Shown piece by piece: positions 1 to 15,323 of a DNA stretch of 15,323 bases. The notes beneath the pieces were generated by a model. The model did not search any database. It was given only the letters and a program-made list of their open reading frames with translations, and had not been told where the DNA came from. Both the position numbers and the translations under genes were made by a program. This stretch comes from a virus (Duplodnaviria; Heunggongvirae; Uroviricota; Caudoviricetes). Positions within the stretch are counted from its first letter, which is position 1, and each line of letters opens with the position of its first letter. The stretch spans positions 1 through 15,323 of IMG/VR virus record IMGVR_UViG_2609459790_000002. The stretch is one strand, 5' to 3'.

Positions 1-8
1 GGCCCGCG

Positions 9-58
<50 letters not shown>

Positions 59-681
59 ATCCCCGCATAGTCATCATCACAGATTTCAATGACATCACCT
101 GGTACATGGCGAAGCCCTTCGGCACCCACGCTGAAGTCCACGGTCTGCGTTTCCAGCAGTTCCGTTTTAATCAGCCACAGCCCGGCTCGGTGCGCCTGCC
201 CCCGCCTGGTACAGCCAAAGGCATCCATCTTCGTGACGTTACGACCGTAACGGGCAATGGCCTGCGTGTCCTCCACAAGCTCTGTCGCCGTCTCCCAGCC
301 GTTATCCGGGTCAATCCAGTTCACCTCAACGGCATTATGGCGGTCCTTCAGGGCGCTGAAGCTGTAGCGGAACGGCGCGCCATCATCCGGCATCACCACA
401 TTACTGCGGTTATAGGTCCACACCTTATCTGATGGTCGGTCCTGCACGAACGTCAGCGTCTGCCCGTTCCATACCGGCATACAGCGCATCGCCGAGCAGA
501 AATCACTGAGAACATCCCACGCCTTACGCTGTGTGGTCAGCCAGGCATTACAGGTGATGCGCGGCTCCGTGCCGCCAAAACCGTCCGGCACCGACTGGTC
601 GCAACACTGGCCGATGACATACAGCGCCCATTTATCCACATCTGCCGCACCAAGACGTTTACCCATGCCGTAGCGCGGGTG
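59..681 (-). pseudogene. Internal fragment of a lambda J-like tail tip / host-specificity protein (no start, no stop in window)
   Basis: Minus-strand frame whose codons end at plus coordinates divisible by 3 is open from about 681 down to 59. Hand-translated segments: KRLGAADVDKWRLYVIGQCCDQSVPDGFGGTEPRITCNAWLTTQRKAWDVLSDFCSAMRCMPVWNGQTLTFVQDRPSDKVWTYNRSNVVMPDDGAPFRYS (361-660), NVTKMDAFGCTRRGQAHRAG (181-240), EGLRHVPGDVIEICDDDYAGISIG (59-130). I recognise this from memory as the central region of lambda gpJ. Absent from the ORF track because it has no stop codon. Confidence 0.65.
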
Positions 682-916
682 GCTGGAGATCTGTCTCGCT
701 GGCCTGCCGCAGTTCTTCAACTTCCCGGCGCAGCTTTTCGTTCTCAATTTCAGCATCCCTTTCGGCATACCATTTTATGACGGCGGCAGAATCATAAAGC
801 ACCTCATTACCCTTGCCACCGCCTCGCAGAACGGGCATTCCCTGTTCCTGCCAGTTCTGAATGGTACGGATACTCGCACCGAAAATGTCAGCCAGCTGCT
901 TTTTGTTGACTTCCAT
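659..916 (-). pseudogene. nohA: Terminase small subunit Nu1 homologue, truncated after about 79 conserved residues (Qin nohA/nohQ type)
   Basis: Track ORF MEVNKKQLADIFGASIRTIQNWQEQGMPVLRGGGKGNEVLYDSAAVIKWYAERDAEIENEKLRREVEELRQASETDLQP matches the lambda Nu1 N-terminus as I recall it (winged-helix DNA-binding part), then diverges into PALRHG-stop at about nt 680. ATG at 914-916 lies immediately downstream of cosB as in lambda. Confidence 0.8.
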
Positions 917-940
917 TGTTCATTCCACGGACAAAAACAG

Positions 941-1140
941 AGAAAGGAAACGACAAAGGCCAAAAAGCCCGCTTTCAGCACCTGTCGTTTCCTTTCTTTT
1001 CAGGGGGTATTTTAAATAAAAACATTAAGTTACGACGAAGAAGAACGGAAACACCTTAAACCGGAAAATTTTCATAAATAGCGAAAACCCGCGAGGTCGC
1101 CGCCCCGTAACCTGTCGGATCACCGGAAAGGACCCGTAAA
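941..1140 (-). other. Lambda-type cos site: cosB (R1, R2, R3 gpNu1 boxes) and cosN with the 12-nt cohesive-end sequence
   Basis: Minus strand reads GGGCGGCGACCT (plus 1094-1105), the lambda cohesive end. Flanked on one side by the CGTAACCTGTCGGATCACCGGAAAGGACCCGT lambda right-end sequence, on the other by CGCGGGTTTTCGCTATTTATGAAAATTTTCCGG. R3-like box at plus 1042-1054, R2-like 984-997, R1-like 941-954 (CGTTTCC(N)TTCT type). Recognised from memory of the lambda genome ends. Confidence 0.75.
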
Positions 1141-1304
1141 GTGATAATGATTATCATCTACATATCACAACGTGCGTGGAGGCCATCAAACCACGTCAAA
1201 TAATCAATTATGACGCAGGTATCGTATTAATTGATCTGCATCAACTTAACGTAAAAACAACTTCAGACAATACAAATCAGCGACACTGAATACGGGGCAA
1301 CCTC

Positions 1305-1538
1305 ATGTCAACGAAGAACAGAACCCGCAGAACAACAACCCGCAACATCCGCTTTCCTAACCAAATGATTGAACAAATTAACATCGCTCTTGAGCAAAAA
1401 GGGTCCGGGAATTTCTCAGCCTGGGTCATTGAAGCCTGCCGCCGGAGACTGTGCTCAGAAAAAAGAGTTTCTTCTGAAGCAAACAAAGAAAAGAGTGACA
1501 TTACTGAATTGCTCAGAAAACAGGTCAGACCAGATTGA
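1305..1538 (+). CDS. ynfO: Small basic prophage protein (YnfO-like), 77 aa
   Basis: ATG at 1305, first gene after cos; position matches the Qin gene order nohA-ynfO-ydfO. Arg/Thr-rich N-terminus. Symbol assigned by synteny and recollection, not by search. Confidence 0.55.
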   Translation: MSTKNRTRRTTTRNIRFPNQMIEQINIALEQKGSGNFSAWVIEACRRRLCSEKRVSSEANKEKSDITELLRKQVRPD

Positions 1539-1595
1539 AGCAATTTAGATAATCGTGCAGACTACGCCCCCTCATATCACATGGAAGGTTTATCT

Positions 1596-2006
1596 ATGGA
1601 TCAGGTAGTCATTTTTAAACAAATATTTGATAAAGTTCGAAACGATTTAAACTATCAATGGTTTTATTCTGAGCTAAAACGTCACAATGTCTCACATTAC
1701 ATTTACTATTTAGCCACAGAGAATGTTCATATTGTATTAAAAAATGATAATACAGTGTTATTAAAGGGCCTAAAAAACATTGTGTCTGTCAAATTTTCAA
1801 AGGATAGGCATCTTATAGAAACGACCTCTAATAAGCTGAAATCCAGAGAGATCACATTTCAGGAATACAGAAGAAACCTTGCTAAAGCAGGAGTTTTTCG
1901 GTGGGTTACAAATATCCACGAACAAAAAAGATATTACTATACCTTTGATAATTCATTACTATTTACTGAAAGCATCCAGAAAACTACACAGATCTTACCA
2001 CGCTAA
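1596..2006 (+). CDS. ydfO: DUF1398-family prophage protein (YdfO-like), 136 aa
   Basis: Track ORF 1581-2006. The ATG at 1596 has a GGAAGG SD 7 nt upstream (1584-1589) whereas 1581 has none, giving 136 aa. Synteny with Qin ydfO. Confidence 0.6.
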
Positions 2007-2157
2007 ACCATAACGTCCGGCTTCTCTCACTCCTGAGCCGGACTGCATTGGTTTAATAAAAACCATCAACAATTGTGATTTAGATATTCGGAACCATTCA
2101 AATATAACAAAACCCCGTAAAAACGAGGTTTATGGATAAATTTTATTATTGAATACA

Positions 2158-2334
2158 TCAGATTAAATTAATCTTGACATCATAGCTTTCAAGACCCGTC
2201 ATTTTTTCCCGTGCGGTAAACTGAATACTGGTAACTTCTTTCCCGGTCTTTTTCTTAAGTTCAATAATTTTTTTTGTTATATATTCAGAAATATCTGCTT
2301 CTGCTTTTGTTTTTAAGTTTTCAATATTCATCAT
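2158..2334 (-). CDS. gnsB: GnsA/GnsB-family small protein, 58 aa (missed by ORF track, under 60 aa)
   Basis: Hand translation of minus strand: MMNIENLKTKAEADISEYITKKIIELKKKTGKEVTSIQFTAREKMTGLESYDVKINLI, stop TGA at 2158-2160. AAGAGGAA SD 6 nt upstream of tandem ATG ATG (2329-2334). The FTAREKMTGLESYDVK core is the GnsA/GnsB signature as I recall it. Start could be the second ATG (2331). Confidence 0.7.
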   Translation of the reverse strand: MMNIENLKTKAEADISEYITKKIIELKKKTGKEVTSIQFTAREKMTGLESYDVKINLI

Positions 2335-2502
2335 TTCCTCTTTTAGTCTGTTATGACTTTCCAGTTACACAGTAAGTCGATTATATGGTGCAAACGTGTA
2401 AAAGATAAGATGAAACATCGCAATAATCAACATACGATAGTCTAAATTTTACACAAACAGACAAAGAGAATTTTCCTGAATTATCAATGCAATAGCATCA
2501 AA

Positions 2503-2733
2503 TCAACTCAAGAGCCTTATTGCTGCTTCCAGAATTTCTTCTGAAGTAACATGTCGATCCGCGGCTACATAAATGACTTTATGATCTCCGGTCAGAGATG
2601 GAAACCCTGCGGCCATTACAGTAAGGTGTGTTTTTTCGCCATTTGGATATTCACGCATGATGGTGTTAACTCCAGTCATCGCTGGCACTACCACTGCTGG
2701 TTCAGAGTTAAAAAAAACTATGATTTTTTTCAT
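2503..2733 (-). CDS. ynfN: Small hypothetical prophage protein (YnfN-like by position), 76 aa from ATG
   Basis: Track ORF 2503-2775 begins at a TTG; the first ATG is at 2731-2733 (MKKIIVFFNSEPAVVV...). Located between gnsB and cspI as ynfN is in Qin. Start codon is uncertain. Confidence 0.45.
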   Translation of the reverse strand: MKKIIVFFNSEPAVVVPAMTGVNTIMREYPNGEKTHLTVMAAGFPSLTGDHKVIYVAADRHVTSEEILEAAIRLLS

Positions 2734-3004
2734 GATGTTACCGTAGTATGTGAGTATCCATCGAATAGACACCAAGCAAAAAAGCTCCCGAAGGAGCCTT
2801 CATTTTCACTTTTTTAAATCCAACGACAGACGGCTGGCATTTAAGTATTGTGAAATATTATCAAATGTAATCATCATTGATTTACAAAAGATACATTTTG
2901 CCCCGAAAGGATTCATGTCAGAAACATCAAAAGATGATGTTCTATACTGGGAACCATGACAACACGGGCATCTAAAGTGAATATGGTTTGTAATATTGTC
3001 TACC

Positions 3005-3217
3005 TCAAAGCGCCACTACATGAACAGCGGCAGGACCTTTAGGTCCGTTCTCAATACCAAATTCAACTTCCTGATTCTCAGTTAATGTTTTGAAATCGTT
3101 GCTCTGAATTGCTGAGAAATGGACAAACACATCTTTGCTGCCATCTTTCGGCGTGATGAAACCAAAACCTTTTTCAGGGTTAAACCATTTCACTAAACCA
3201 GTCATTTTGTTAGACAT
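3005..3217 (-). CDS. cspI: Cold-shock protein, CspA family, 70 aa
   Basis: [70 protein letters not shown] carries RNP1 (KGFGFI) and RNP2 (VFVHF) motifs. AAGG SD 8 nt upstream of the ATG. Sequence and position match Qin cspI. Confidence 0.9.
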
Positions 3218-3579
3218 AATTATTACCTTTTGAAGAAATTAGCCCTTGGGCAGAATGGTCCGAAAAAAAATATCAGAGAGAAAAACCAACAAGGAAATCT
3301 CAAGAGGTACAAATAATAAAATTATAACAATGACTGCTTCAGATAAATTTGTAACAAACCAGAACACCATTAACGCATGATTAACCACCCATAGCAAGGA
3401 TTACTTTTGTAAAGAAAAACACAGCAATGAAAGAATAGCTTTATTTATTAATAAAACGTGTCATTCTGATTAAGACCTTTTATCTTACCCTTAAGATTTC
3501 AGGAATTTTGGCTCATGGAAGAGTCCTTTTTATTTAAATTTTACATTCCGCGATGTAAATGTTCCGATTTAATATTACC

Positions 3580-4603
<1,024 letters not shown>

Positions 4604-4607
<4 letters not shown>

Positions 4608-4915
4608 AGATATTTATGATGAGGACGCTCGTGCTTATTGGCAGGATTTTCAATCTTAAAGGAGTACTGATGCTGCAGATAAGACTCAACTTTTTCTGAC
4701 AATTTTTCTGCTACTTCCAGGAAGACTTGCCGGACGCTCCTTCTGGCTGCTGCCTCATAAAACTCCAGCGCAGCTCCTTCAACACGGTCCATGGCGACAT
4801 CCAGGTCAAAAATTTCACCGTCAAAGCGTTCTTTGTCCTGTAAGGCTACAGTTACCGTAACTTTATTCTCAAAATTACGGACTCCTTTCACAACCAGTTC
4901 ATAGTCTTGAGTCAT
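4604..4915 (-). CDS. ydfR: Lysis-cassette accessory protein (YdfR / DUF1327-like), 103 aa
   Basis: ATG at 4913-4915 with an AGGAGA SD 8 nt upstream. Sits between holin and endolysin as in Qin. Function unknown. Confidence 0.65.
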
Positions 4916-4919
4916 TGGA

Positions 4920-5135
4920 TTACTCTCCTCTCGCAGCCTTACGCCTGTCTTCTTTAATCTTGAAATAAAGATTTGTCAGATACGTCAGCAGGCCAAAAAC
5001 CAGGCTACCCAGCACACCGATTGCAGCCCACTGTGACGGAGTTACTTTATCGAGTAACTGCAATGCCCAGAAACCAGCATTACCCGCCGATGTGCCATAG
5101 GCAACACCTGTTGTTAACTTATCCATTGATTTCAT
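4920..5135 (-). CDS. essQ: Class II holin (phage 21 S-like) with dual-start motif, 71 aa
   Basis: [71 protein letters not shown] has two TM segments. Met1-Lys-Ser-Met4 is a holin/antiholin dual start. GGTGAGGA SD directly upstream of the ATG at 5133-5135. The track ORF extends to 5210 without SD support. Confidence 0.8.
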
Positions 5136-5354
5136 ATCCTCACCCCGATGTACACGGATGGTGCAATATGTTTGAAAAGATCGGAGTCTACGGGGTAGTT
5201 TTGACAGCACACGTTGTTCTCAACGGCGCTAAAAAAACATACACATTAAAAATGTGGGTAATTATTTTGAAAGAAAGTCATATATAAAATAATAATACGA
5301 GAAATGTTTTCATATTTAGTGTACTGTATACGGCCATTTATACAGGAAAAGCCT

Positions 5355-5525
5355 ATGTCAGAACGTAAAAACTCAAAATCACGCCGTAATTATCTCGTTA
5401 AATGTTCCTGCCCAAACTGCACCCAAGAGTCAGAACACAGTTTTTCAAGAGTACAAAAAGGTGCCCTTTTGATCTGCCCTCATTGCAACAAAGTATTCCA
5501 GACAAATCTTAAAGCTGTAGCCTGA
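5355..5525 (+). CDS. Small zinc-ribbon protein, 56 aa (CxxC...CxxC), possibly the Qin YnfU-type small protein
   Basis: MSERKNSKSRRNYLVKCSCPNCTQESEHSFSRVQKGALLICPHCNKVFQTNLKAVA has two CxxC pairs (CPNC, CPHC). AGGAAAA SD 8 nt upstream of the ATG at 5355. Track ORF 5304-5525 is the longer version. Confidence 0.5.
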   Translation: MSERKNSKSRRNYLVKCSCPNCTQESEHSFSRVQKGALLICPHCNKVFQTNLKAVA

Positions 5526-5577
5526 TTGATTTTATTAGTAACAAGTATTTTTTATATTTTAATAATATATTTAAAGC

Positions 5578-5607
5578 AGATAATAAAAAACCCGCCTGAG
5601 CGGGTTT
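5578..5607 (-). terminator. Rho-independent terminator (minus-strand oriented), between the Zn-ribbon ORF and cspB
   Basis: Stem AAACCCGC (5588-5595) / GCGGGTTT (5600-5607) with a 4-nt loop. On the minus strand it is followed by TTTTTTATTAT; the plus-strand side has a weaker U tract. Confidence 0.55.
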
Positions 5608-5888
5608 GAGATTGTGGTGCTTTTTGTGGGAGTCATCCACTTACGCACTTTGTTTTGCCATGCCAGCAGTTAGCTTCTGCTGTAAAACTATTCATGCAGC
5701 AAACCTGCACTTCACCACAATGGTTAGCATACTTTTCCTGATTAAGATTTTGCCAAATATGCTAGCCATTGTTTCATGTATTGGACCTCCTTACTTTTTA
5801 TTAAAGAGATCCAATATTCACTACTCTGTCCGTATCTCTACTCAGGCATCAGCCTTCTTCGTTATCGTATACAGACGAGCGATGAATT

Positions 5889-6104
5889 TTAATCAGTAAT
5901 GATGACATTTGCTGCTGCAGGACCTTTAGCACCACTCTCTATAGAGAAGGTAACCTTTTGACCTTCAAATAAGGTTCGATAATTATCATTCTGAATCGCA
6001 GAAAAATGCACAAACACATCTTTACTACCATCAACAGGAGAAATAAAGCCGAAACCTTTATCAGCGTTAAACCATTTTACTAAACCAGTCATTTTATTTG
6101 ACAT
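5889..6104 (-). CDS. cspB: Cold-shock protein CspB, 71 aa
   Basis: [71 protein letters not shown] with RNP1/RNP2 motifs. AAGGAA SD 7 nt upstream of the ATG at 6102-6104. Long AT-rich 5' leader region as in csp genes. Confidence 0.9.
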
Positions 6105-6404
6105 TCTACATTCCTTAACTTGAGCCTTTCGGCATAAATGGTTTGCATAACAGAAACGACTTCGTACTTAATTGGAGAGACTCAAAGAAGGAATAAGTGA
6201 ATAACACCTGAAATGAGAACTGCTTTAGTAAACTACTTCGTATATCGTCTGTTCTTCAAACCGACGCAATCATTAACGCATAGTTGAACATATGAAGCAA
6301 TGTTTATTTTAGACATCCAGCCATCTTCAACCCCATCAAAAAACTATAGCTTTCTTCAGGAACGTGTGTATAGTGCGCCAAGTTATCAGTATTAAGGAAT
6401 TTTT

Positions 6405-6617
6405 TTGTCCCGTAAAATGACAGGAATTGTCAAAACCTTTGACGGCAAAAGCGGCAAGGGTCTTATCACCCCATCCGATGGTCGTATCGATGTCCAGCTT
6501 CATGTTTCAGCGCTCAATCTCCGCGATGCAGAAGAAATTACCACCGGATTACGCGTGGAATTTTGCCGGATAAATGGTCTGCGTGGCCCTTCAGCTGCCA
6601 ATGTTTACCTTTCATGA
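6405..6617 (+). CDS. cspF: Cold-shock-protein-family paralogue CspF, 70 aa (TTG start)
   Basis: [70 protein letters not shown]. First codon is TTG at 6405 with an AAGGAA SD 5 nt upstream. Divergent from cspB. RNP motifs are degenerate, as in CspF/CspH. Confidence 0.85.
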
Positions 6618-6671
6618 GCTATATTAAAGCTTTAATTTCAGGCCCCATCGGATCACACATGGAGAGTTTTT

Positions 6672-6761
6672 ATGAATAACCCCGTCTGTCTTGATGACTG
6701 GTTGATTGGCTTTAAAAGCTTATGCTGTACTTTGGCCGTAATAGCTCTGCTAATAATATAA
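6672..6761 (+). CDS. Candidate 29-aa small hydrophobic protein (speculative)
   Basis: ATG at 6672 preceded by GGAGAG (6661-6666) with a 5-nt spacer. [29 protein letters not shown] ends in a hydrophobic stretch. Lies between cspF and the downstream terminator. No homology could be checked. Confidence 0.25.
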
Positions 6762-6907
6762 TAAGCAGACTCATTGTGTTTAGGGACATTGTACTGGAAG
6801 AAAACATTTTAAACATCAGGCAAATAACCAAGTCACCAGCTAAATAATAAGTTAACAGACATGAGTCCCGGGATGAGATTCAACATTACCATTGCCCCAT
6901 TTAAAGC

Positions 6908-6946
6908 ACAAAACCCGCTCATCAGCGGGTTTTCTACTTTTTCTTA
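6908..6946. terminator. Bidirectional rho-independent terminator (cspF terminator on plus strand; tR'-like on minus strand)
   Basis: Stem AAACCCGC (6911-6918) / GCGGGTTT (6925-6932) with a 6-nt loop. Plus strand continues TTTTCTACTTTTTCTT; minus strand continues TTTTGTGCTTT. Lies about 40-60 nt downstream of the predicted late promoter. Confidence 0.6.
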
Positions 6947-6978
6947 ACGTCGGGTATACAAAGCCCATCGTTGAAAAA

Positions 6979-7007
6979 ATTTTATCCATATTTTTTGAAA
7001 AATGCAA
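6979..7007 (-). promoter_or_regulatory. PR'-like sigma70 late promoter immediately downstream of Q (TTGCAT-N17-TAAAAT)
   Basis: On the minus strand: -35 TTGCAT (plus 7002-7007), 17-nt spacer, -10 TAAAAT (plus 6979-6984). Located 30-60 nt after the quuQ stop, the canonical place for the Q-modified late promoter in lambdoid phages. Confidence 0.5.
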
Positions 7008-7038
7008 ACATCATGTCGCCATCTTCAGCAAAAATCAT

Positions 7039-7791
7039 TTATCTCGTCACCTTCCTCAATTGCGCTTCCGCGTATGCTTCTTCCTGCCAGCACTTTGTTA
7101 CCAGTTTACCAATGACGTCCGCATACCCCTTATACCACTGATAATCGGTCAGGTCTGGTACCAGCTTCTGGACATGACGTCGTGCCAGCGTGGTCGGTAA
7201 ACGACTAAACCGGTTTCCATTACAACGCCCACAAATCTTATATACCGGTACGCCATGAAACCGGGTTCTTTTTTCATCCAGAACAATCCCTTTACCCTTA
7301 CACCCTCTGCACGCTGTGCTGGCTTCGCCCTTACCATGGCAATGCTGACATAGTTCCTTCACCCATTCTTCCTTGATTACAGATTCCCCGCGTCTGTAGT
7401 GTTTCACCACTTCGCGCAATACATTATAAAATCCCGTACCTGAACAATGCTCACAGCGAGCCTTACTTGCCGCAGACCTGGAGTAATCAGCAAAGGCAAA
7501 ACTCACGAGGTAAGGAATAATCTGTAACCGGATTTCTTCACTCAATTTGTTCAATGTCGGGTTATCCAGTGCCATCGCGTAATTTAGCAGGCCTTCAATC
7601 GCAAACTGAGGGTCCTGAACACCAACTTTTGCCAGAAATAAGGCCAACCCAAGTGGTGCTTTCGACTGCACCATCCCCTGCGCTGCCATTACATCCGTAA
7701 TTGTTAAACAACCGGTGCCTGTCGCTGGAGCGTCATCGCTCAATTTTGGAGATTTTGGGGAGTAATATTTTGGTAAGGCTTCAAGGTTCAT
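7039..7791 (-). CDS. quuQ: Late-gene antiterminator Q (phage 82/21-type) with four CxxCxGxG zinc-finger repeats, 250 aa
   Basis: ATG at 7789-7791 (MNLEALPKYY...) with a GGAG SD about 7 nt upstream. Track ORF extends to 7821 but would overlap the upstream gene by 17 nt. Contains CEHCSGTG, CQHCHGKG, CRGCKGKG, CGRCNGNR. Position between ydfU and the late promoter matches Q. Confidence 0.8.
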   Translation of the reverse strand: MNLEALPKYYSPKSPKLSDDAPATGTGCLTITDVMAAQGMVQSKAPLGLALFLAKVGVQDPQFAIEGLLNYAMALDNPTLNKLSEEIRLQIIPYLVSFAFADYSRSAASKARCEHCSGTGFYNVLREVVKHYRRGESVIKEEWVKELCQHCHGKGEASTACRGCKGKGIVLDEKRTRFHGVPVYKICGRCNGNRFSRLPTTLARRHVQKLVPDLTDYQWYKGYADVIGKLVTKCWQEEAYAEAQLRKVTR

Positions 7792-7804
7792 GCTCGTTCT
7801 CCAC

Positions 7805-8854
7805 TTACGCCAGTACGCCAATTGCCAGCGCGCGATCGATAAAACGAAATATCAGCTCCAGTTGGGAGCCATACTTATCTTCAAATGCCACTGTATCCGT
7901 ATGCAGCTCGTTGTGATGCTTTCTGCACAAAGGCAACACAAAGAGATCATGTGCTTTTGTTCCCATTCCGCCCTGCCCGTGACCAATCAGATGATGCGGA
8001 TCGTCGGCTGGCATACCGCAGCAAGCACACGGCTGTGTCTTAACCCAACGTGTGTATTTCTCCTTAACCCAGCGGCGACGTTTAGGCAGCTTCATGAAAG
8101 ATTCCGGAGACTCTGGATCAACGGTGATGCTTACCACCGTCTTTTCCTGTGGTGATTTTTGTTGCTGGTGGGCGTAAGGCAACGGTGCAAGATTTTTTGT
8201 GCGTTGTTTCAATATGCTGGTGGCGGTCTGCTCTCCCGGTACGATGTCGCTTTCGCGGTACACCGAGCAGATTTTTTCCGCTGGTAATCCCAGCGAACGA
8301 CGCGATACAGCCTCAGGTAGTGCATCCACCACCTGATTGCAGACCGCCCACCAGGATAATTCAGCCAAAGATAATTCCCGCTCCTGCGTACCGCTTATTG
8401 CGTGACGGATGACGTCAATCACCCATGCTGTCAGATTTTGTTGAGCAAGCAGCTCCAGTGATTCCGATGTCTGGTCACGCAGTTGGTTGTCGCAGTGCCA
8501 GCACAACACCATTGCGCCGGTACCATAACGGTGAATGACTGTTTCAGTGTGATGGTAATCGCCATTAGGCCACTGGCAGGATGTAACATGACGTAATAGC
8601 CAGTCGGACAATGCGCCAACGCCGCCAGCAGCACGAATCACCCGTTCGTTACTAAAAAACGGCAGCAATGTTTTGTCTTCCGCCAGCGGCTGGCGAACGG
8701 CAGGAACGACTCCGGATGGCAGATTACGCATGCTTTTTGGTTCCGGTTCCACCAGCACTCGAGGATTATGAAATATCTGTATGGATTCACGGCCCGGCTT
8801 AAGGACCACCAGCCCAAGCTCAGGCACCAGAACAGGTCTAAGTAATACCCGCAC
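7805..8854 (-). CDS. ydfU: DUF968-family prophage protein YdfU-like with C-terminal HNH-like Cys/His motif, 349 aa
   Basis: Chosen start is GTG at 8852-8854 with GGAGG 4 nt upstream, one nt after the TAA of the upstream ORF. Track ORF extends to 8893 (GTG, no SD); first ATG at 8731 has no SD. C-terminus has CACCGMPADDPHHLIGHGQGG...LCRKHHNELH. Confidence 0.65.
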   Translation of the reverse strand: MRVLLRPVLVPELGLVVLKPGRESIQIFHNPRVLVEPEPKSMRNLPSGVVPAVRQPLAEDKTLLPFFSNERVIRAAGGVGALSDWLLRHVTSCQWPNGDYHHTETVIHRYGTGAMVLCWHCDNQLRDQTSESLELLAQQNLTAWVIDVIRHAISGTQERELSLAELSWWAVCNQVVDALPEAVSRRSLGLPAEKICSVYRESDIVPGEQTATSILKQRTKNLAPLPYAHQQQKSPQEKTVVSITVDPESPESFMKLPKRRRWVKEKYTRWVKTQPCACCGMPADDPHHLIGHGQGGMGTKAHDLFVLPLCRKHHNELHTDTVAFEDKYGSQLELIFRFIDRALAIGVLA

Positions 8855-8855
8855 G

Positions 8856-9134
8856 TTACCTCCAGATCCGTTGCTGGAAAGTGCGGGACGCACGTGGTGG
8901 GCGTTCGGAATAAGGCAGCCTGACAGAGATTATCCAGTGCCGATAGTCGAGACTGAGAGCTTTCTTAACCTCGAACCCGCGCCTGCGGTAAGAATGAATC
9001 AGCCATTCGGCCTGTTCTGCAGTGCATGGAGGGTGCTGGAACCATTCAGACTTGAATGCGTGAGAATACCGCCCGTGCGTGCAGGCAAGAACGGGCGAAT
9101 TATCAGAATTGTAATATTTTGCGTTGCGTGCCAT
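8856..9134 (-). CDS. Hypothetical 92-aa prophage protein, translationally coupled to ydfU
   Basis: ATG at 9132-9134 with a GGAGAA SD 5 nt upstream. Its stop TAA (8856-8858) abuts the ydfU GTG. Protein MARNAKYYNSDNSPVLACTHGRYSHAFKSEWFQHPPC... is not recognised. Confidence 0.5.
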   Translation of the reverse strand: MARNAKYYNSDNSPVLACTHGRYSHAFKSEWFQHPPCTAEQAEWLIHSYRRRGFEVKKALSLDYRHWIISVRLPYSERPPRASRTFQQRIWR

Positions 9135-9200
9135 CGGTTTTCTCCGGTGGCACGGTGTTACTCAGCGGGAGTTCAGCCCCGCGCAAGATTGTAGATGAGT

Positions 9201-9452
9201 TTATTCTCCTGAAAAAGCAGAAAAGCCAGCTTTTATTCCGATCTCTTTCAATGCCTGTAATGAAGTGACAAACTCACCTTCGCGCAAGATAAATCCGTCC
9301 GTGACCCGAGCATCCACAAAATTAATTAACGCAGCCCCATTCTTTCGCAAACACATAATGCGGTAATGACTAACAAGATTTCCATTTTCAACGCACACAG
9401 CATAGAGGCCATCTTCACAAAAAATTTTACGCAGTTCTTCGATGTTCATCAT
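9201..9452 (-). CDS. rem: Small prophage protein Rem-like, 83 aa
   Basis: Tandem ATG ATG at 9447-9452 with a GGAAGGA SD 5 nt upstream. Its position immediately downstream of the relBE-hokD terminator matches rem in Qin. Identity by synteny and length only. Confidence 0.55.
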   Translation of the reverse strand: MMNIEELRKIFCEDGLYAVCVENGNLVSHYRIMCLRKNGAALINFVDARVTDGFILREGEFVTSLQALKEIGIKAGFSAFSGE

Positions 9453-9565
9453 CAGAATCCTTCCGGATAATTAGCTCTCCCCTTTAAGGGACCATCCCTC
9501 TTATCCCTGCGCGCTACTTAAGTATTTTTGATTCTATTCCGGCACCGTCCAGAACTTCAAACGCG

Positions 9566-9600
9566 TTGAAAATAAAAACAAAAACCCGCCGAAGCGGGTT
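9566..9600 (-). terminator. Rho-independent terminator of the relB-relE-hokD operon
   Basis: Stem AACCCGC (9583-9589) / GCGGGTT (9594-9600) with a CGAA loop. On the minus strand it is followed by TTTTTGTTTTTATTTT. About 68 nt downstream of the hokD stop. Confidence 0.65.
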
Positions 9601-9668
9601 AAGTGCGGGTGCGTTGAGGATGCCTGCCACATCAGAGGTGGCGAGGGATTTCTCCCCCGCCGGGTCTC

Positions 9669-9824
9669 TTACTCCTCAGGTTCGTAAGCTGTGAAGACAG
9701 CGACCTCCGTCTGGCCGGTTCGGATTCGTACCTCGCAGAGGTCTTTCCTCGTTACCAGTGCCGTCACTATGACGGTTAAACAGATGACGATCAGGGCGAT
9801 TAACATCGCCTTTTGCTGCTTCAT
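9669..9824 (-). CDS. hokD: Hok-family type I toxin HokD (RelF), 51 aa (missed by ORF track, under 60 aa)
   Basis: Hand translation: MKQQKAMLIALIVICLTVIVTALVTRKDLCEVRIRTGQTEVAVFTAYEPEE. ATG at 9822-9824 with an AGGAGA SD 8 nt upstream; TAA stop at 9669-9671. Hok signature TM helix and LCE motif; third gene of the relBE operon. Confidence 0.85.
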   Translation of the reverse strand: MKQQKAMLIALIVICLTVIVTALVTRKDLCEVRIRTGQTEVAVFTAYEPEE

Positions 9825-9895
9825 AGCCTGCTTCTCCTGTCAACGCAAAGCAGAAGTGTCACCTTCGGTGCGAAACAGAGATGTCATGCTTTGGT

Positions 9896-10183
9896 TCAGA
9901 GAATGCGTTTGACCGCCTCGCTATATACTTCCGAGCGTTCTCTTTTCCCAACAGAAATCACGAAAACGACAACTTTCTCGTCTATAACCTGGTATACAAG
10001 GCGATAGCCTGAAGACCGGAGCTTAATCTTGTAACAATCAGGCATACCACGGAGCTTGTTTGCTTCAATCCGGGGTGACTCAAGTACTTCAACCAGCTTC
10101 TTTTTCAACTGTTCACGTACCGTCGAGCCCAGCTTTCGCCATTCCTTTAGTGCCCGCTCGTCAAAATCCAGAAAATACGCCAT
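9896..10183 (-). CDS. relE: Type II toxin RelE (ribosome-dependent mRNA interferase), 95 aa
   Basis: MAYFLDFDERALKEWRKLGSTVREQLKKKLVEVLESPRIEANKLRGMPDCYKIKLRSSGYRLVYQVIDEKVVVFVISVGKRERSEVYSEAVKRIL is recognised as E. coli RelE. Its ATG overlaps the relB TGA (TGATG). Confidence 0.92.
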   Translation of the reverse strand: MAYFLDFDERALKEWRKLGSTVREQLKKKLVEVLESPRIEANKLRGMPDCYKIKLRSSGYRLVYQVIDEKVVVFVISVGKRERSEVYSEAVKRIL

Positions 10184-10422
10184 CAGAGTTCATCCAGCGT
10201 CACACGTACTGGCTTAGGATTACGAAGCCGTTCTTTCACTATCTCCACAAGTTCAGCATCTTCATCACTCAGGAGTGTCTGTTTGAACGGCAAGCGTTCA
10301 TTGTCAGCGATATACTCGAGCATGAGACGAAGCGCTTCAGAAGGAGTTACACCCATTTTTTCAAGCGCGGCGTAAGAACGCGCTTTAAGTTCATCGTCAA
10401 TACGCAGGTTAATGCTACCCAT
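10183..10422 (-). CDS. relB: Type II antitoxin RelB (RHH DNA-binding), 79 aa
   Basis: MGSINLRIDDELKARSYAALEKMGVTPSEALRLMLEYIADNERLPFKQTLLSDEDAELVEIVKERLRNPKPVRVTLDEL is recognised as E. coli RelB. AGAGGTG SD upstream of the ATG at 10420-10422. Confidence 0.92.
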   Translation of the reverse strand: MGSINLRIDDELKARSYAALEKMGVTPSEALRLMLEYIADNERLPFKQTLLSDEDAELVEIVKERLRNPKPVRVTLDEL

Positions 10423-10475
10423 GTCTTACACCTCTTGTAATTACAAATGTCATTACAAGTATCGCACTACAACAT
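10423..10475 (-). promoter_or_regulatory. relBE promoter/operator region (relO) with TTGTAAT-type repeats
   Basis: Directly upstream of relB: CTTGTAATTACAAATGTCATTACAAG contains inverted and direct TTGTAAT / ATTACAA repeats, consistent with the RelB-RelE-bound operator. Confidence 0.55.
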
Positions 10476-10571
10476 GCTTAGGGCAAGTCACGAAGGAAGT
10501 CAGAAAGTAGTCGTAAGAACGGTGATCACTGTCCGCTTTGTGCCAGAAGCGGATGTTACTTCTTGCATATT

Positions 10572-11483
10572 TCAATTTTCTTCTCCCCACAGCGGTGTAT
10601 CTCCTAACGCTTTAGCAATAAAATCAACAAAGCTGCGAACCTTGAAAGGAATACGGATCGCGCTGGGATAAACAGCCTGAATAGTAAGTTCAGTCGTCCG
10701 GTATGCTGGCAGCAGCTTTATCAGCTTGCCCTGCTTAATATGCTCGCCAAAAACAAAGTTGGGCCCGTAAGCAATGCCTGTTCCGGCCAGTACGGATTCA
10801 AGAAGCAACTGAATGTTATTGGCAGTCATACGGCATGGGCCTTCAATACTGTGCGGCCTGCCTTGTGCATCATAAATCGTCCAGTCTCCCGCTGAAACCG
10901 CCTGGCTGAACGCCAGTCGAGGCGCACGGGAAAGATCATCCGGCGTCTCTGGTGTGCCATGTTTTTTCAAATACTCCGGTGAAGCGCACAAAACCATCCT
11001 GCAAGGTGCCAGCCGCCGCGTAACCAGTGTCGGATCCTCAAAACGCCCAACTCGGATGGCAACATCGATTCGATTTTCGAGCAGATCGGCGTATTTATCC
11101 TCCAGTACAACGTCCAGACTGACCTCCGGAAATTGCTCCAGGTAGCGTGATACGATCCTACCAAGATGCATTGCACCGAAGGCGACCGGTGCTGCAACGC
11201 GAAGCAACCCCTTCGGTGTTTTCTGAACATCACTGGCTTCCCGGTTCGCATCCTCAAGAACCTCAAGAATAACTTTGCAACGTTCATAATACCGCTCACC
11301 GGCATCCGTCAGGCTAAGACGGCGTGTTGAACGCTGAAGAAGTCGTACATTTAGATCAGATTCTATAGCGCTGACATGCTTTCCTGCCATTGCAGCCGAA
11401 AGCTTAAAACGTCTCGCGGCGGCGGCGAAACTGCCTTCATCCACTGCCGCGATAAAAATCTGCATGCTGGTGAACCTGTCCAT
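10572..11483 (-). CDS. LysR-family transcriptional regulator (LTTR), 303 aa
   Basis: N-terminal wHTH signature MDRFTSMQIFIAAVDEGSFAAAARRFKLSAAMAGKHVSAIESDLNVRLLQRSTRRLSLTDAGERYY followed by a substrate-binding domain. Divergent from the adjacent hydrolase gene. Confidence 0.85.
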   Translation of the reverse strand: MDRFTSMQIFIAAVDEGSFAAAARRFKLSAAMAGKHVSAIESDLNVRLLQRSTRRLSLTDAGERYYERCKVILEVLEDANREASDVQKTPKGLLRVAAPVAFGAMHLGRIVSRYLEQFPEVSLDVVLEDKYADLLENRIDVAIRVGRFEDPTLVTRRLAPCRMVLCASPEYLKKHGTPETPDDLSRAPRLAFSQAVSAGDWTIYDAQGRPHSIEGPCRMTANNIQLLLESVLAGTGIAYGPNFVFGEHIKQGKLIKLLPAYRTTELTIQAVYPSAIRIPFKVRSFVDFIAKALGDTPLWGEEN

Positions 11484-11595
11484 AACTTACCACCATTCGA
11501 TAATCAGAGTATCGGCTGTCGACACAATTACGCTGATTATCATCACTCATGACAGCAATTACCATTACCTTAATGACATGAAGAGGCATGAGACG

Positions 11596-12756
11596 ATGAA
11601 AATTAAGGTGAATGGAACGGGTATCCACATTGAGCAACAGGGCAGCGGTGAAATTGCACTGGTATTTTTGCATTATTATGGCGGTTCATCCCGTACATGG
11701 GAGAGCGTGATAAGTCAGTTACCTGACCACTACCGCACAGTTGCAATCGACCACCGGGGCTGGGGGGGCTCAGACGCACCTAAATCAGGATACCGAATTG
11801 GTGACCTTGCTCGGGATGCCGAAGGGGTTATTTCAGCGCTTGAGCTTAAACGCTACATTCTTATTGGCCATTCGATGGGGGGAAAAGTTGCCCAACTGAT
11901 GGCGTCGCGTCGGCCTGCAGGTCTTGAAGGCCTGATGCTTATCGCTCCCTCTCCACCTTCACCTATGCGTCTCACGCCTGAGCAGCGCGATACGTTATCC
12001 AGCGCATATAACAGCCGCGAATCTGTCGGCTTTGTGATTGATAATGTCCTGACAGCGGGGGCACTAAGTTCTGCTCTGCGTGAACAGGTAATCGAGGACA
12101 GTTTGAGGGCCTCATCCGAGGCCAAAGAAGGCTGGCCTAATACGGCTATCGGCGAAGACATTACCCAGGAAGTGGCCTCAATTAATGTCCCTGTGACGGT
12201 CATTTCAGGGGAGTTGGATCGTGTAGACCTTCCGGCTACTCTGCAAAGAGAATTGCTGCCCCTTATTTCACATGCATCAATGTATATTATTCCAGACGTC
12301 GGACATCTCTTGCCTCTGGAGGCCCCTACAGAGGTCGCCAGCCACCTGTTAAAATTTACAGCCGCCATTGAAGGGGGGACAGCAGTCTACCATTCGCCTG
12401 TCGAAACGATAGCCGCGTTTGATGATGCTTTCAATGCAGGCAGGGTTGATGACCTGCTGGCTCTGTTCAGTAACCGTGCCACTATGAAAATGACTGATGG
12501 TGTGGTCATCGAAAGCGATCCTGAAAAGCTTCGGGACACTTTTTTGTCACTGACATCATCCCAGCCAGTTATCAGAAACCATATCCGCTCGATCCTCTCC
12601 GCCGGTGAAATTGCTCTGCTTATTATTGACTGGACTTTGACCATAACCACCAAGGATAGAACACTGCACGAAGAGTCCGGTACAGCAACGCAGGTGTTGT
12701 TGCGAAGCGTTGACGGAGGTTGGCGGCTGCTGATTTCAAATCCATCAGGAACGTAG
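11596..12756 (+). CDS. Alpha/beta-hydrolase fused to a C-terminal NTF2-like / SnoaL-like domain, 386 aa
   Basis: ATG at 11596 with an AAGAGG SD 9 nt upstream; earlier in-frame ATGs at 11464 and 11578 lack an SD and would overlap the LysR start. Nucleophile elbow GHSMGG, HRGWGGSD motif, His in PDVGHLLPLE. The C-terminal 115 aa (AAFDDAFNAGRVDDLLALFS...WRLLISNP) is NTF2/SnoaL-like. Confidence 0.8.
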   Translation: MKIKVNGTGIHIEQQGSGEIALVFLHYYGGSSRTWESVISQLPDHYRTVAIDHRGWGGSDAPKSGYRIGDLARDAEGVISALELKRYILIGHSMGGKVAQLMASRRPAGLEGLMLIAPSPPSPMRLTPEQRDTLSSAYNSRESVGFVIDNVLTAGALSSALREQVIEDSLRASSEAKEGWPNTAIGEDITQEVASINVPVTVISGELDRVDLPATLQRELLPLISHASMYIIPDVGHLLPLEAPTEVASHLLKFTAAIEGGTAVYHSPVETIAAFDDAFNAGRVDDLLALFSNRATMKMTDGVVIESDPEKLRDTFLSLTSSQPVIRNHIRSILSAGEIALLIIDWTLTITTKDRTLHEESGTATQVLLRSVDGGWRLLISNPSGT

Positions 12757-12936
12757 TGAGTTCAGTAAGAATAGCTTGCGCTAGCAATATCGCGTGGCTG
12801 CAGAGAGGTAAGTGACATCCGCCACCACCCGCATGCCGTTTTAAGGCATGCGGTAATAACGATGAGCGCAAGATTGCTGTTATGTCTTGCTGCTTTCGGA
12901 GCGCCTGCTTTTCGCTCTTAGCGGACATTAGCATAG

Positions 12937-14499
12937 GCTATTTACCATAACGCCTCATTACGCGCACCGCCCAGACTGACTCAGCGCGTTTCTGGCATAT
13001 CCCCGGTAAAACAAGTAACAAACCACCCGAAAATGAACACCAGAAACGCGACTTAAGAATCTACCCTATGAATGGATATGCACTCAACCGAATCGATCTT
13101 GGTTTCAATCTTTTTTATCGGGATCAGGCTTCTTTTTAGGTAACTTCGGGGGCTTAACTTGCTGATGACTTTGCGTTCGGCGCGTAAGCCAGGGATGGTC
13201 AGCTTTAGGTTTAACATAGTATTTTGAGCGTAAATCAATACGGGCATTATCCACTCGTTCATGGACACTCTTTTCATCATCCAGTGGTATAGGCTCCGGG
13301 CCATCAACATACTTTTCCCAGCCCAGCGCTTTCCCGTCATACAGAACGTTAATTTCACCGTCAAAGTTCTCGCATACAGTAACAACCGAATGCCTAAGTC
13401 GATATCCCCGGCCCTCACTGCGTACCTGAAACGCACTGCTTTTGTACTGGAAAGTGAGATTTTTAGACAGAACGCGCTTCGCCTGTAGGCTGAAGATATA
13501 ACCCAGTTCCTCTTCAGAATGGTGCACATCAAGATGAGCATTATCAGTAGTACGAGGCGACGTAGCGAACCGGTTGTTATAGGCTTCAATAAAGGTCGGC
13601 AACCATGCATTTGCTGTTTCAATATCACTGATATTCTGAAGCCGCATTTCTTTGACCAGCCTGTCCTGTAGTGTCTGATTGGCGCGCTCTACCCGCCCTT
13701 TTGCCTGCGGGCTGTTGGCATGGATTGGCTCGATGCCCAGTGTCTTTATCGCACGAGTGAACTGGGTCAGCTCACCTTCCCGCTCTGGGTTATTTACCCT
13801 GAATATACTGTGTCTATCAGAGTAGAGAGCGAGCGGTACGCCATGATCATTAAGGTAACCCCGGAGGGTTTCCATGTAAGCCCGGGTTGTTTCAGCAGGC
13901 ACAAAACGCAACGCCATCAACGCACTGGTGGCATCATCAATGAAAACGATCAGTGTACATCTGGGGCCTCGATTTTCAAACCAGTCATGAGGTGAGCCAT
14001 CAATCTGGATCAGTTCACCGTAAGATGGTCGTCGCATGCGGCGTTGATATATACGGGCAATTTTACGACGGCGTTCACGCCATAACCCCTCTTCTATCAT
14101 CCACTTTCTGAGAGTTTCAACGGATAAAGATAAACCGTGTATCTCGCGCAATTTTTCGCACGCAAACGTAGGTCCAAAATCAGCGTAACGGCCTTTGAGG
14201 AGTGAAATTACTGTTGCTCTGAATTCAGTAGAAAAGGAATTATTAGGACGCTTTCCACGTCGGTGGGAAACCAGACCAGAAGGCCCTTCATTTCTATACC
14301 GTTGCACCAGACGTTTAACCTGCCGAATAGAAATGCCAATGCGTGCCGCAGCTTGTTCCTGAATAATCTGAAGTCGGTGGAGTTCCTTATGACTCATCGT
14401 AACAGTCTCTTTGATCATGAAAAATCCCCCAGAGAATTGTCTGGGGACATTTTAGAATGGTTCAAAGGGGACATTACAGCTTGGTGTTAACAATAGCCT
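12937..14499 (-). mobile_element. Insertion sequence carrying the 437-aa DDE transposase; terminal inverted repeats not resolved (ends approximate)
   Basis: Single transposase gene with about 80-170 nt flanks. The only candidate terminal match found by eye is AGGCTATT (12937-12944) against AATAGCCT (14492-14499), which is at chance level. Boundaries are therefore provisional. Confidence 0.35.
13105..14418 (-). CDS. DDE transposase with rve integrase-core domain (IS481/ISNCY-like), 437 aa
   Basis: N-terminal HTH (GISIRQVKRLVQRYRNEGPSGLVSHRRGKRP), DDE-type core (LIQIDGSPHDW..., LALYSDRHSIF, ...RVERANQTLQ) and a Lys/Pro-rich basic tail. ATG at 14416-14418 with a GGGGGA SD. Family assignment is from motif recollection only. 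Confidence 0.8.
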   Translation of the reverse strand: MIKETVTMSHKELHRLQIIQEQAAARIGISIRQVKRLVQRYRNEGPSGLVSHRRGKRPNNSFSTEFRATVISLLKGRYADFGPTFACEKLREIHGLSLSVETLRKWMIEEGLWRERRRKIARIYQRRMRRPSYGELIQIDGSPHDWFENRGPRCTLIVFIDDATSALMALRFVPAETTRAYMETLRGYLNDHGVPLALYSDRHSIFRVNNPEREGELTQFTRAIKTLGIEPIHANSPQAKGRVERANQTLQDRLVKEMRLQNISDIETANAWLPTFIEAYNNRFATSPRTTDNAHLDVHHSEEELGYIFSLQAKRVLSKNLTFQYKSSAFQVRSEGRGYRLRHSVVTVCENFDGEINVLYDGKALGWEKYVDGPEPIPLDDEKSVHERVDNARIDLRSKYYVKPKADHPWLTRRTQSHQQVKPPKLPKKKPDPDKKD

Positions 14500-14797
14500 G
14501 CTTCTCCGTGCCTTTCGGCACGTAAGAGGCTAACCTACATGTGTCTAGCATGAAATTGGCCTCAGATTAATGTTAAGCGTCTTGCAGGACGCGTAATGTT
14601 AACTGGGGCTTTTCTCTATCTGCCGTTGGTGTCCATGCCCGAGGCAGATAGCCTCAAGCACCCGCAGTCATTCTACTTAACTAAGATTTCCCCGCAAACC
14701 GTTTTTGTCCAGCACAGTAAATATCCAACTAAACCAATGGAGTTCGCTGTATTTACCGCCAGTATTCAATGCACATGACCGCCATGAACACCCCTAA

Positions 14798-15323
<526 letters not shown>

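Follow-up and report, generated by a model that had tools for sequence, protein, structure and literature searches.

Insertion of an ISEsa1-like transposon at the hok start codon as the probable origin of the prophage relB-relE-hokD operon

The relBEF operon of the Qin prophage of Escherichia coli K-12 has been studied since the 1980s, and the loss of sok at its third gene, hokD (relF), is textbook knowledge. In the literature, a "major genetic rearrangement" is said to have stripped hokD of the canonical components of a hok locus, and integration of relBE has been reported to have truncated its ancestral frame of ~70 codons, mok (Ramisetty and Sudhakari 2019). Here, we analyze the relB-relE-hokD operon present in a 15,323-nt stretch of DNA from a virus of the Caudoviricetes (positions 1 to 15,323 of IMG/VR record IMGVR_UViG_2609459790_000002, hereafter called the window). 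We estimate a probability of about 0.9 that this is the Qin-prophage relBEF operon, that its hokD gene was cut from Sok when an ISEsa1-like transposon inserted at the hok start, and that the three genes share a single mRNA driven by relBE.

All three genes lie on the minus strand of the window (Table 1), a point on which the initial annotation of this DNA was silent. That annotation had claimed a tight arrangement of type II and type I toxin genes, and this is borne out by three open reading frames (ORFs) with Pfam matches and by the sequence TGATG, in which the stop codon of relB overlaps the start codon of relE; its 72-nt gap between relE and hokD has to be corrected, as the spacer (9825..9895) measures 71 nt, the length also given in the literature (PMC5120126). 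A gene for a RelB-domain antitoxin stands 5' of, and overlaps, one for a RelE/ParE-fold toxin, which is the gene content of a type II RelBE module, and both proteins are identical to RelB and RelE of K-12. The third ORF encodes a Hok/Gef-family toxin of ~50 aa and is followed by the 3' elements of hok loci, namely a fold-back (fbi) box (CCTCAACGCACCC, 9619-9607) kept in the 3' untranslated region (UTR) and a terminator hairpin. Positions 9400-10550 are 99.9% identical to the relB-relE-hokD region of the K-12 Qin prophage, where RefSeq annotates all three genes, and the same arrangement is present in 1157 of 5426 complete E. coli genomes.

Hok genes usually form complete hok/sok modules, including those that encode identical HokD proteins in other prophages, and the hokD 3' UTR of the window, with its fbi box and terminator, is intact. 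One could therefore regard hokD as an independent module with its own promoter and Sok that merely lies beside relBE. The Rfam sok model (RF01794), which covers the hok mRNA between +1 and the hok AUG, has no match within 9300-10600 even at E<=10; an all-Rfam search at the same threshold returned isrK (25 bits) and other matches in this interval, which were set aside as sub-threshold chance matches to models of terminator-containing small RNAs. When the hokD region was used in a megablast search, hokD copies unlinked to relE matched the window at 98-99.6%, and did so only from 9838 downstream; homology to intact hok/sok loci likewise starts at ~9837, 13 nt before the ATG. A contiguous Sok antisense gene with its leader target is absent at hokD, as are an overlapping mok frame and 5' tac and ucb elements, the 58 nt downstream of the relE stop codon being transposon-end sequence. 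A tac box (GGGTGCTTGAGG) is present only at 14663-14652. The sequence GCTTTGCG, 5' of hokD, was considered as the stem-loop of R1 hok and rejected, for it is the right inverted repeat of the transposon and is identical beside unrelated hok genes. These results agree with the initial annotation, which had seen no obvious sok-type antisense promoter between relE and hokD: in the alignment to hok/sok loci that it had proposed, made here with intact loci, and in the Rfam search, the leader elements were absent and the fbi box was retained on the 3' side, and a search for a conserved sok promoter facing the hokD leader came up empty. Because the spacer is a transposon end that is 100% conserved beside unrelated hok genes, has no promoter-like site on either strand, and precedes a gene whose RNA signal depends on the relBEF promoter (PMC3598666), we consider an independent hokD module extremely improbable.

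The severed 5' leader of the same hok/sok locus is located 4.65 kb upstream of hokD in the window, where it had escaped the initial annotation. The region of the tac box, ucb, the mok start, and the Sok target and promoter falls within it, and its identity to the intact leader of E. coli CFT073 is 92.5%. It matches intact loci up to 14493 and stops at the "AT" of what was once the hok start codon, abutting the left end of the transposon. In CFT073, the leader and hokD are contiguous, and the encoded protein has the same accession as HokD of K-12 (WP_000813254.1). In a three-way alignment, the intact CFT073 locus (...GGTCAAGGAGAAGCAGGCTATGAAGCAG...) is the sum of the leader junction (...GGCACGGAGAAGCAGGCTAT/TGTTAACACC...) and the hokD junction (...GCGTTGACA/GGAGAAGCAGGCTATGAAGCAG...) of the window, and GGAGAAGCAGGCTAT is found at both. 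A simple split of the locus into two halves without duplication was rejected, as the overlap is exactly 15 nt. The repeated GGAGAAGCAGGCTAT consists of the hok ribosome-binding site (Shine-Dalgarno) and the "AT" of the start codon, and because the duplication contains both, hokD retains a ribosome-binding site and an ATG directly outside the transposon.

The orphan leader itself differs from that of CFT073 beside the ribosome-binding site, where GGTCAAGGAG is altered to GG-CACGGAG. By analogy with R1, we take this stretch to be the place where the sok -35 element is expected, and therefore sok in the orphan leader may be decaying. A pattern scan of the surroundings of the orphan leader found no promoter at >=9/12 consensus positions, which is a weak negative, as the same scan misses the relBE promoter.

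The left and right terminal inverted repeats of the transposon (IRL and IRR) are identical at 19 of 26 positions and both begin with TGT. The relE stop codon is 58 nt from the tip of the element, and relBE with its own promoter adjoins the IRR. Copies of the transposase with 98-100% identity are named "IS1202-like element ISEsa1 family transposase" in RefSeq. IS1202-family elements are described as having 5'-TGT ends and duplications of 5-6, 15-17, or 27-28 bp (literature), and the features of that family are found here, with a DDE transposase of the family, imperfect 26-bp repeats (~22-28 bp in the family) that start with 5'-TGT, and a target-site duplication. RefSeq annotates the transposase ORF of the window as a partial ISNCY transposase plus "ydfW," and ydfW of K-12 is a C-terminal remnant of the transposase. 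A terminator-like hairpin (TCCCCAGACAATTCTCTGGGGG, then ATTTTT) lies on the minus strand at 14426-14447, between the IRL and the transposase start, and would shield the transposase gene from transcription reading in from the hok promoter.

Table 1. Features of the relB-relE-hokD region and of the transposon, in window coordinates
Feature	Position	Strand	Evidence or remark
relB, type II antitoxin, 79 aa	10422..10183	-	Pfam RelB, 112 bits, E=1e-32; RefSeq WP_000534858.1
relE, type II toxin / mRNA interferase, 95 aa	10183..9896	-	Pfam ParE_toxin (covers RelE), 51 bits, E=2e-13; RefSeq WP_000323025.1
hokD (relF), Hok-family membrane toxin, 51 aa	9824..9669	-	Pfam HOK_GEF, 83 bits, E=1e-23; RefSeq WP_000813254.1
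hokD 3' UTR: fbi box and intrinsic terminator	9573..9668	-	terminator scan; homology to intact hok loci
Mini-ORF, 15 codons, MTSLFRTEGDTSALR	9840..9887	-	read from sequence, in relE-hokD spacer
relBE promoter and relO operator	10435..10486	-	sequence reading
ISEsa1-like (IS1202-family) transposon, 4655 bp: IRL, transposase, cargo, relB promoter, relB, relE, IRR	9838..14492	-	terminal repeats, 15-bp duplication, empty-site comparison
IRR, read inward TGTCAACGCAAAGCAGAAGTGTCACC	9838..9863	+	in relE-hokD spacer; 19/26 identical to IRL
IRL TGTTAACACCAAGCTGTAATGTCCCC	14467..14492	-	terminal-repeat comparison
Transposase, 437 aa	13105..14418	-	NCBIfam NF033594 transpos_ISNCY_2, 456 bits vs cut-off 250
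Right copy of 15-bp duplication GGAGAAGCAGGCTAT	9823..9837	-	exact direct repeat at homology breakpoint
Left copy of 15-bp duplication GGAGAAGCAGGCTAT	14493..14507	-	exact direct repeat
Severed 5' leader of the same hok/sok locus	14492..14663	-	Rfam RF01794 sok, 104 bits, E=4e-23, model positions 1-157
Palindromic site GTCCGCTTTGTGCCAG/AAGCGGAT, relB-side cargo edge	10531..10554	+	three cargo types diverge inside site
Palindromic site CCTGCTTTTCGCTC/TTAGCGGAC, transposase-side cargo edge	12904..12927	+	sequence comparison
Cargo of window copy	10552..12906	.	Pfam and NCBIfam matches
LysR regulator (cargo)	10572-11483	-	
Alpha/beta-hydrolase-SnoaL protein (cargo)	11464-12756	+	

The proposed course of events is as follows. 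An ISEsa1-like transposon with relBE at its right end would have inserted into an intact prophage hok/sok locus, at the ribosome-binding site and start codon of hok. The 15-bp duplication would have left the Shine-Dalgarno sequence and "AT" ahead of the hok coding sequence and so kept the hokD start, and the hok promoter, leader, and sok would have stayed behind at the other transposon end (14492-14663). Because of this insertion, hokD would be left without Sok, the mok frame, and tac/ucb, and it would be fed only by read-out from relBE, with transcription from the RelB/RelE-autoregulated promoter passing through relB, relE, the terminator-free 71-nt spacer with the IRR, and hokD to the hok terminator.

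Other copies of the element are bounded by the same IRL and IRR. A 3307-bp copy in plasmid pEnt261 of Enterobacter asburiae sits inside a different, R1-like hok and is flanked by the duplication GGAGAAGAAGGCCAT. A copy of 12,843 bp in Klebsiella michiganensis pKOCBH-A carries the metal-resistance genes ncrYCBA and chrBA together with the relB-relE end, and its target, which is not hok, shows a 16-bp duplication (ATCACGGGGCACGATA); further copies of 6093 and 4487 bp with the same IRL and IRR are found in other genera. One degenerate-pattern scan, with one genome per species, gave 63 stretches. At every enterobacterial IRR examined, relE and relB lie immediately inside, with a degraded match only in the E. 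coli loci L057 and L066, and an identical IRR with relE and relB just inside occurs at >20 loci of other species. The IRLs examined have a transposase gene inside, full-length or partial.

The flanks outside the element comprise ~12 distinct starts of hok genes, which encode at least 8 different Hok proteins and include one hokE-like gene; one hok insertion has the opposite orientation (L049/L050), and a few flanks lie outside hok and show 16-bp duplications. Duplications of 13-16 bp (mostly 15-16) were found at 14 of the 18 end pairs examined, which represent ~9 distinct target sites, and two further pairs were without a clean duplication. In almost all hok insertions, the duplication keeps the ribosome-binding site and ATG of the hok gene in place. 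There is also a second empty site: the flanks of locus L023 joined through one repeat copy are 100% identical over 270 nt to the intact hok locus of many ~300-kb plasmids.

These copies bear on the possibility that the relBE-hokD junction arose by an unspecific rearrangement in the prophage, such as deletion or illegitimate recombination, with the repeats a coincidence. Such an origin would fit the older literature, which speaks only of a "major genetic rearrangement," the lack of a left end in K-12, and the cataloguing of ISEsa1 without a target duplication. It does not account for identical IRL/IRR that bound elements of 3.3, 4.7, 6.1, and 12.8 kb with differing perfect 15-16-bp duplications at different sites, nor for two empty sites that are exact once the element and one repeat copy are removed. 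In addition, an exact 15-nt repeat lies precisely at both breakpoints, and the chance of such a repeat anywhere in 4.9 kb is estimated at ~1%. We therefore hold an unspecific rearrangement to be very improbable.

The association with hok could alternatively reflect one ancient insertion that spread with hok loci by descent or homologous recombination and not a target preference. Plasmid spread of a single insertion is indeed seen, in that identical flanks recur across several species, as with the IncHI2-type hok of L023, L059, L028/30, and L036/42. Across sites, however, the element ends and relBE are ~100% identical, yet the hok flanks are strongly diverged, with at least 8 Hok sequences, and therefore the insertions appear independent and recent. 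The duplications also differ from site to site (for example GGAGAAGCAGGCTAT, GGAGAAGAAGGCCAT, GGAGAAGAAGCCATG, GATGTTAGCCATG, and GATATGCTGACAAA), both copies agreeing within a locus, the insertion at L049/L050 is in the opposite orientation, and a GGCAA-like pentamer recurs outside the element. Given these observations, a single ancient event is unlikely, and repeated insertion at hok starts is the reading that we retain.

The pentamer just mentioned (GGCAA, GGCAC, TGCAA, or GGTTA) borders the duplication on its outer side in 13 of 16 distinct IRL-side flanks, non-hok sites included. These flanks suggest that the target may be chosen via a sequence that resembles the element's own tip, one duplication length away. 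A cousin insertion sequence (IS) with ends TGTCAACGCAAAGCAGAAATGTCCCC is present in metagenome-assembled genomes of marine gammaproteobacteria (L012, L014-L017, L019, L021, and others), and GTCAA is found 20-22 nt outside its end in 12 of 25 distinct flanks, which points to target choice of the same kind. In Enterobacter hormaechei pMS7884B (L009), a 12.8-kb ncr/chr/relBE copy at 10918-23760 has its IRR against a hok start; its IRL, ~50-60 nt further upstream, apparently falls in the leader of that hok gene (TCTGAGGCC...). As no duplication flanks this copy, a deletion beside it or a recombination may have followed the insertion.

Within the operon, a candidate relBE promoter was identified by eye (-35 TTGCCC at 10486-10481 and -10 GATACT at 10463-10458, with 8 of 12 consensus positions), and operator palindromes (TTGTAATGACATTTGTAATTACAA, 10458-10435) are directly 5' of relB, so that the single operator claimed ahead of the operon is found, as far as sequence goes. 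The promoter/operator segment is 100% conserved across all aligned transposon copies. The operator is presumably bound by the RelB/RelE complex, as is the identical K-12 sequence. A pattern scan of the operon strand detected only one intrinsic terminator, after hokD (stem 9600..9583 and T run to 9573), and none in the relE-hokD spacer. A scan for sigma-70-like promoters with a threshold of 9/12 consensus positions found none on either strand of the spacer, a weak negative, as the relBE promoter (8/12) is also missed.

In published northern blots, probes for relB, relE, and relF detected one shared full-length RNA that was lost on deletion of the relBEF promoter; in the same work, the 5' end of the relBEF mRNA was mapped, and the relF part was the most abundant mRNA fragment after toxin-induced cleavage (Kasari et al. 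2013, PMC3598666). Co-transcription of relBEF is also credited to Gotfredsen and Gerdes 1998 in the citation of that study in PMC5120126. Based on the single terminator after hokD, the terminator-free spacer, and these northern blots, relB-relE-hokD is supported as one transcription unit with a shared terminator, as the initial annotation had it. Its proposal that control of hokD depends on the relBE transcript is likewise supported, the spacer having neither promoter nor terminator in the scans and the relF signal depending on the relBEF promoter (PMC3598666).

The spacer also contains the mini-ORF listed in Table 1, whose start is 8 nt past the relE stop codon and whose TGA falls within the IRR tip, 15 nt 5' of the hokD ATG. 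The mini-ORF is conserved because it is transposon-end sequence, and it has no obvious ribosome-binding site. It could act as a ribosome relay from relE to whatever gene adjoins the right end on the outside.

Activation of hok is known to require 3' processing of the mRNA, translation of mok, and the absence of Sok (literature). The intact hok mRNA of CFT073 folds at -173 kcal/mol (z=-7.8), with the 5' tac paired to its 3' fbi counterpart (CCUCAAUGCACCC) and the hok ribosome-binding site masked by leader sequence. Of these parts, the relBEF mRNA retains only the hok coding sequence, the fbi box (9619-9607), and the terminator. In its predicted fold, the start region is paired with the distal coding region, and the IRR-derived GCGUUGA is paired with the fbi box (z=-3.0). 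Because the start region is predicted to be paired and mok-dependent activation is gone, translation of hokD from the relBEF mRNA is probably weak; we infer that it is Sok-independent and scales with relBE transcription.

This raises the question of whether hokD is a functionless passenger or relic that is transcribed and essentially never translated, leaving an operon that is meaningful only as relBE. The absence of mok-coupled activation, tac/ucb, and Sok control, the predicted pairing of the start region, and the view in reviews that the hok loci of K-12 except hokB are inactivated all point in that direction. Nevertheless, the hokD ORF is intact and identical to those of complete loci, HokD is toxic when expressed (literature), the relF part is the most abundant fragment after cleavage (PMC3598666), and almost all hok insertions leave the gene with a ribosome-binding site and ATG. 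We regard a mere passenger as a serious possibility, somewhat short of an even chance.

Several points weigh against the transposon origin and the mRNA proposed for hokD. The window transposase differs from the plasmid copies only by an in-frame deletion of 9 aa (QESINRHIT, residues 20-28) in the N-terminal helix-turn-helix region, as seen in a protein alignment (the full plasmid-borne form, WP_004196353.1, has 446 aa), and therefore the chromosomal transposase of the window is probably inactive; transposition is deduced from structure, namely the multiple insertion sites. K-12 has lost the IRL, the first 1.2 kb of the transposase gene, and the hok leader, and this left-end loss is probably why K-12-based work spoke only of rearrangement. 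As for the transcript, RNA hybridizing to relE/relF persisted after the promoter deletion, which Kasari et al. (2013, PMC3598666) explained by a new promoter arising from the deletion itself, a weak non-consensus promoter could lie in the spacer beyond the reach of the pattern scan, and the weak translation of hokD is drawn only from minimum-free-energy folds.

The limits assigned to the element here also disagree with those of ISEsa1 as catalogued in ISfinder, a 1609-bp element without a target duplication; Harmer, Pong, and Hall (2023) likewise list 1609 bp and no detected duplication, with terminal repeats of 15/22. The inner right end of a 1.6-kb IS was sought near 12880-12930, where no IRL-like repeat was found, only the palindromic site at the cargo edge. 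This suggests that the right end of the catalogued ISEsa1 was placed at the cargo edge.

The two cargo edges are marked by palindromic sites of ~24 bp, with arms GTCCGCT/AGCGGAC and a 10-nt spacer, and it is within these sites that three different cargos diverge. Between them, the LysR-hydrolase cargo of the window takes the place of flxA and the ydfV 3' segment of K-12, and it is found at this position in none of 5426 complete E. coli genomes. Its closest copy (99.2%) is in plasmid pLH71-A of K. michiganensis, outside any transposon, and a local BLAST search of all fetched transposon loci for the window cargo gave no match. The same module is present in many unrelated plasmids and chromosomal islands, always between the same two site types (L074 and L075-L082), and neighboring modules are set apart by a pair of sites ~18 nt apart. 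The sites do not appear to match either the dif or the attC consensus. Together, the edge sites and modules look like a cassette-exchange system.

Already known are the relBEF operon as a co-transcribed unit, the missing sok of hokD, and the truncation of an ancestral frame by relBE integration. In the open-access literature searched, we found no description of a relBE-ended ISEsa1-type transposon with defined ends and a 15-16-bp duplication, or of recurrent targeting of hok starts. We tentatively propose, at odds just under even that the proposal is both correct and undescribed, that relBE, instead of being a free-standing chromosomal TA (toxin-antitoxin) locus, is the conserved right-end module of an ISEsa1-type transposon whose limits have been missed, that makes 15-16-bp duplications, prefers hok starts in one orientation, and exchanges its cargo (flxA-ydfV, ncr/chr metal resistance, or LysR-hydrolase) at 24-bp palindromes. 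This proposal includes the cutting of a resident type I toxin gene from its promoter and Sok and its rewiring to the type II TA promoter of the transposon, and site choice that may use a pseudo-end-like GGCAA motif one duplication length away.

The transposon context offers a definite mechanism for the "major rearrangement" at hokD, in that a transposon would have been targeted to the hok start and, through its 15-bp duplication, would have kept the translation start of the toxin gene. It also suggests that relBE travels as the addiction or read-out module of a transposon that repeatedly lands in the hok loci of plasmids and prophages, which bears on the movement of type II TA systems and on the frequent disruption of chromosomal hok loci. 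If the catalogued limits of ISEsa1 are wrong, the annotation needs correcting, including that of nickel/chromate-resistance copies on clinical plasmids. Elsewhere in the window, two 5' UTRs of the cspA thermoregulator type are present on the minus strand at 2978-3363 and 5873-6265 (Rfam RF01766, 113 and 159 bits); these belong to cold-shock genes of the Qin prophage and are ordinary.

Among known systems, relBEF of K-12 shares with the window operon 99.9% DNA identity, the protein accessions, the TGATG overlap, the 71-nt spacer, and the terminator. The window differs in keeping the IRL, a full-length transposase ORF, and the severed hok leader, which are deleted in K-12, and in carrying LysR and hydrolase genes where K-12 has flxA and the 3' end of ydfV. 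The hok/mok/sok (parB) locus of plasmid R1 and intact loci such as that of CFT073 have in common with the window hokD the Hok toxin (the CFT073 protein being identical), the 3' UTR with fbi box and terminator, and the ribosome-binding site. In contrast to those loci, hokD of the window has no hok promoter, tac, ucb, mok start, Sok target, or sok at hand, its orphan leader being 4.65 kb away, and it is transcribed from a type II TA promoter.

The element itself resembles ISEsa1 and the IS1202 family (ISNCY), including the "transporter IS" tISKpn21, in its transposase family, 5'-TGT repeats of ~26 bp, and 15-17-bp duplication class; some members of the family carry passenger genes, and some are site-specific for dif-like sites. 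Whereas ISEsa1 is catalogued at 1609 bp with no duplication, the copies described here are 3.3-12.8 kb long, always have the relBE end, are flanked by duplications of 13-16 bp (mostly 15-16), and show a preference for hok starts, not for dif sites. Finally, mazEF-mazG and similar type II TA operons are alike in that a TA cassette without its own terminator reads into a neighboring gene (PMC5120126). They differ from relB-relE-hokD in that the downstream gene here is the toxin gene of another TA type, and in that the junction here would have been made by a defined transposon end, as opposed to the unknown integration mechanism of those operons.

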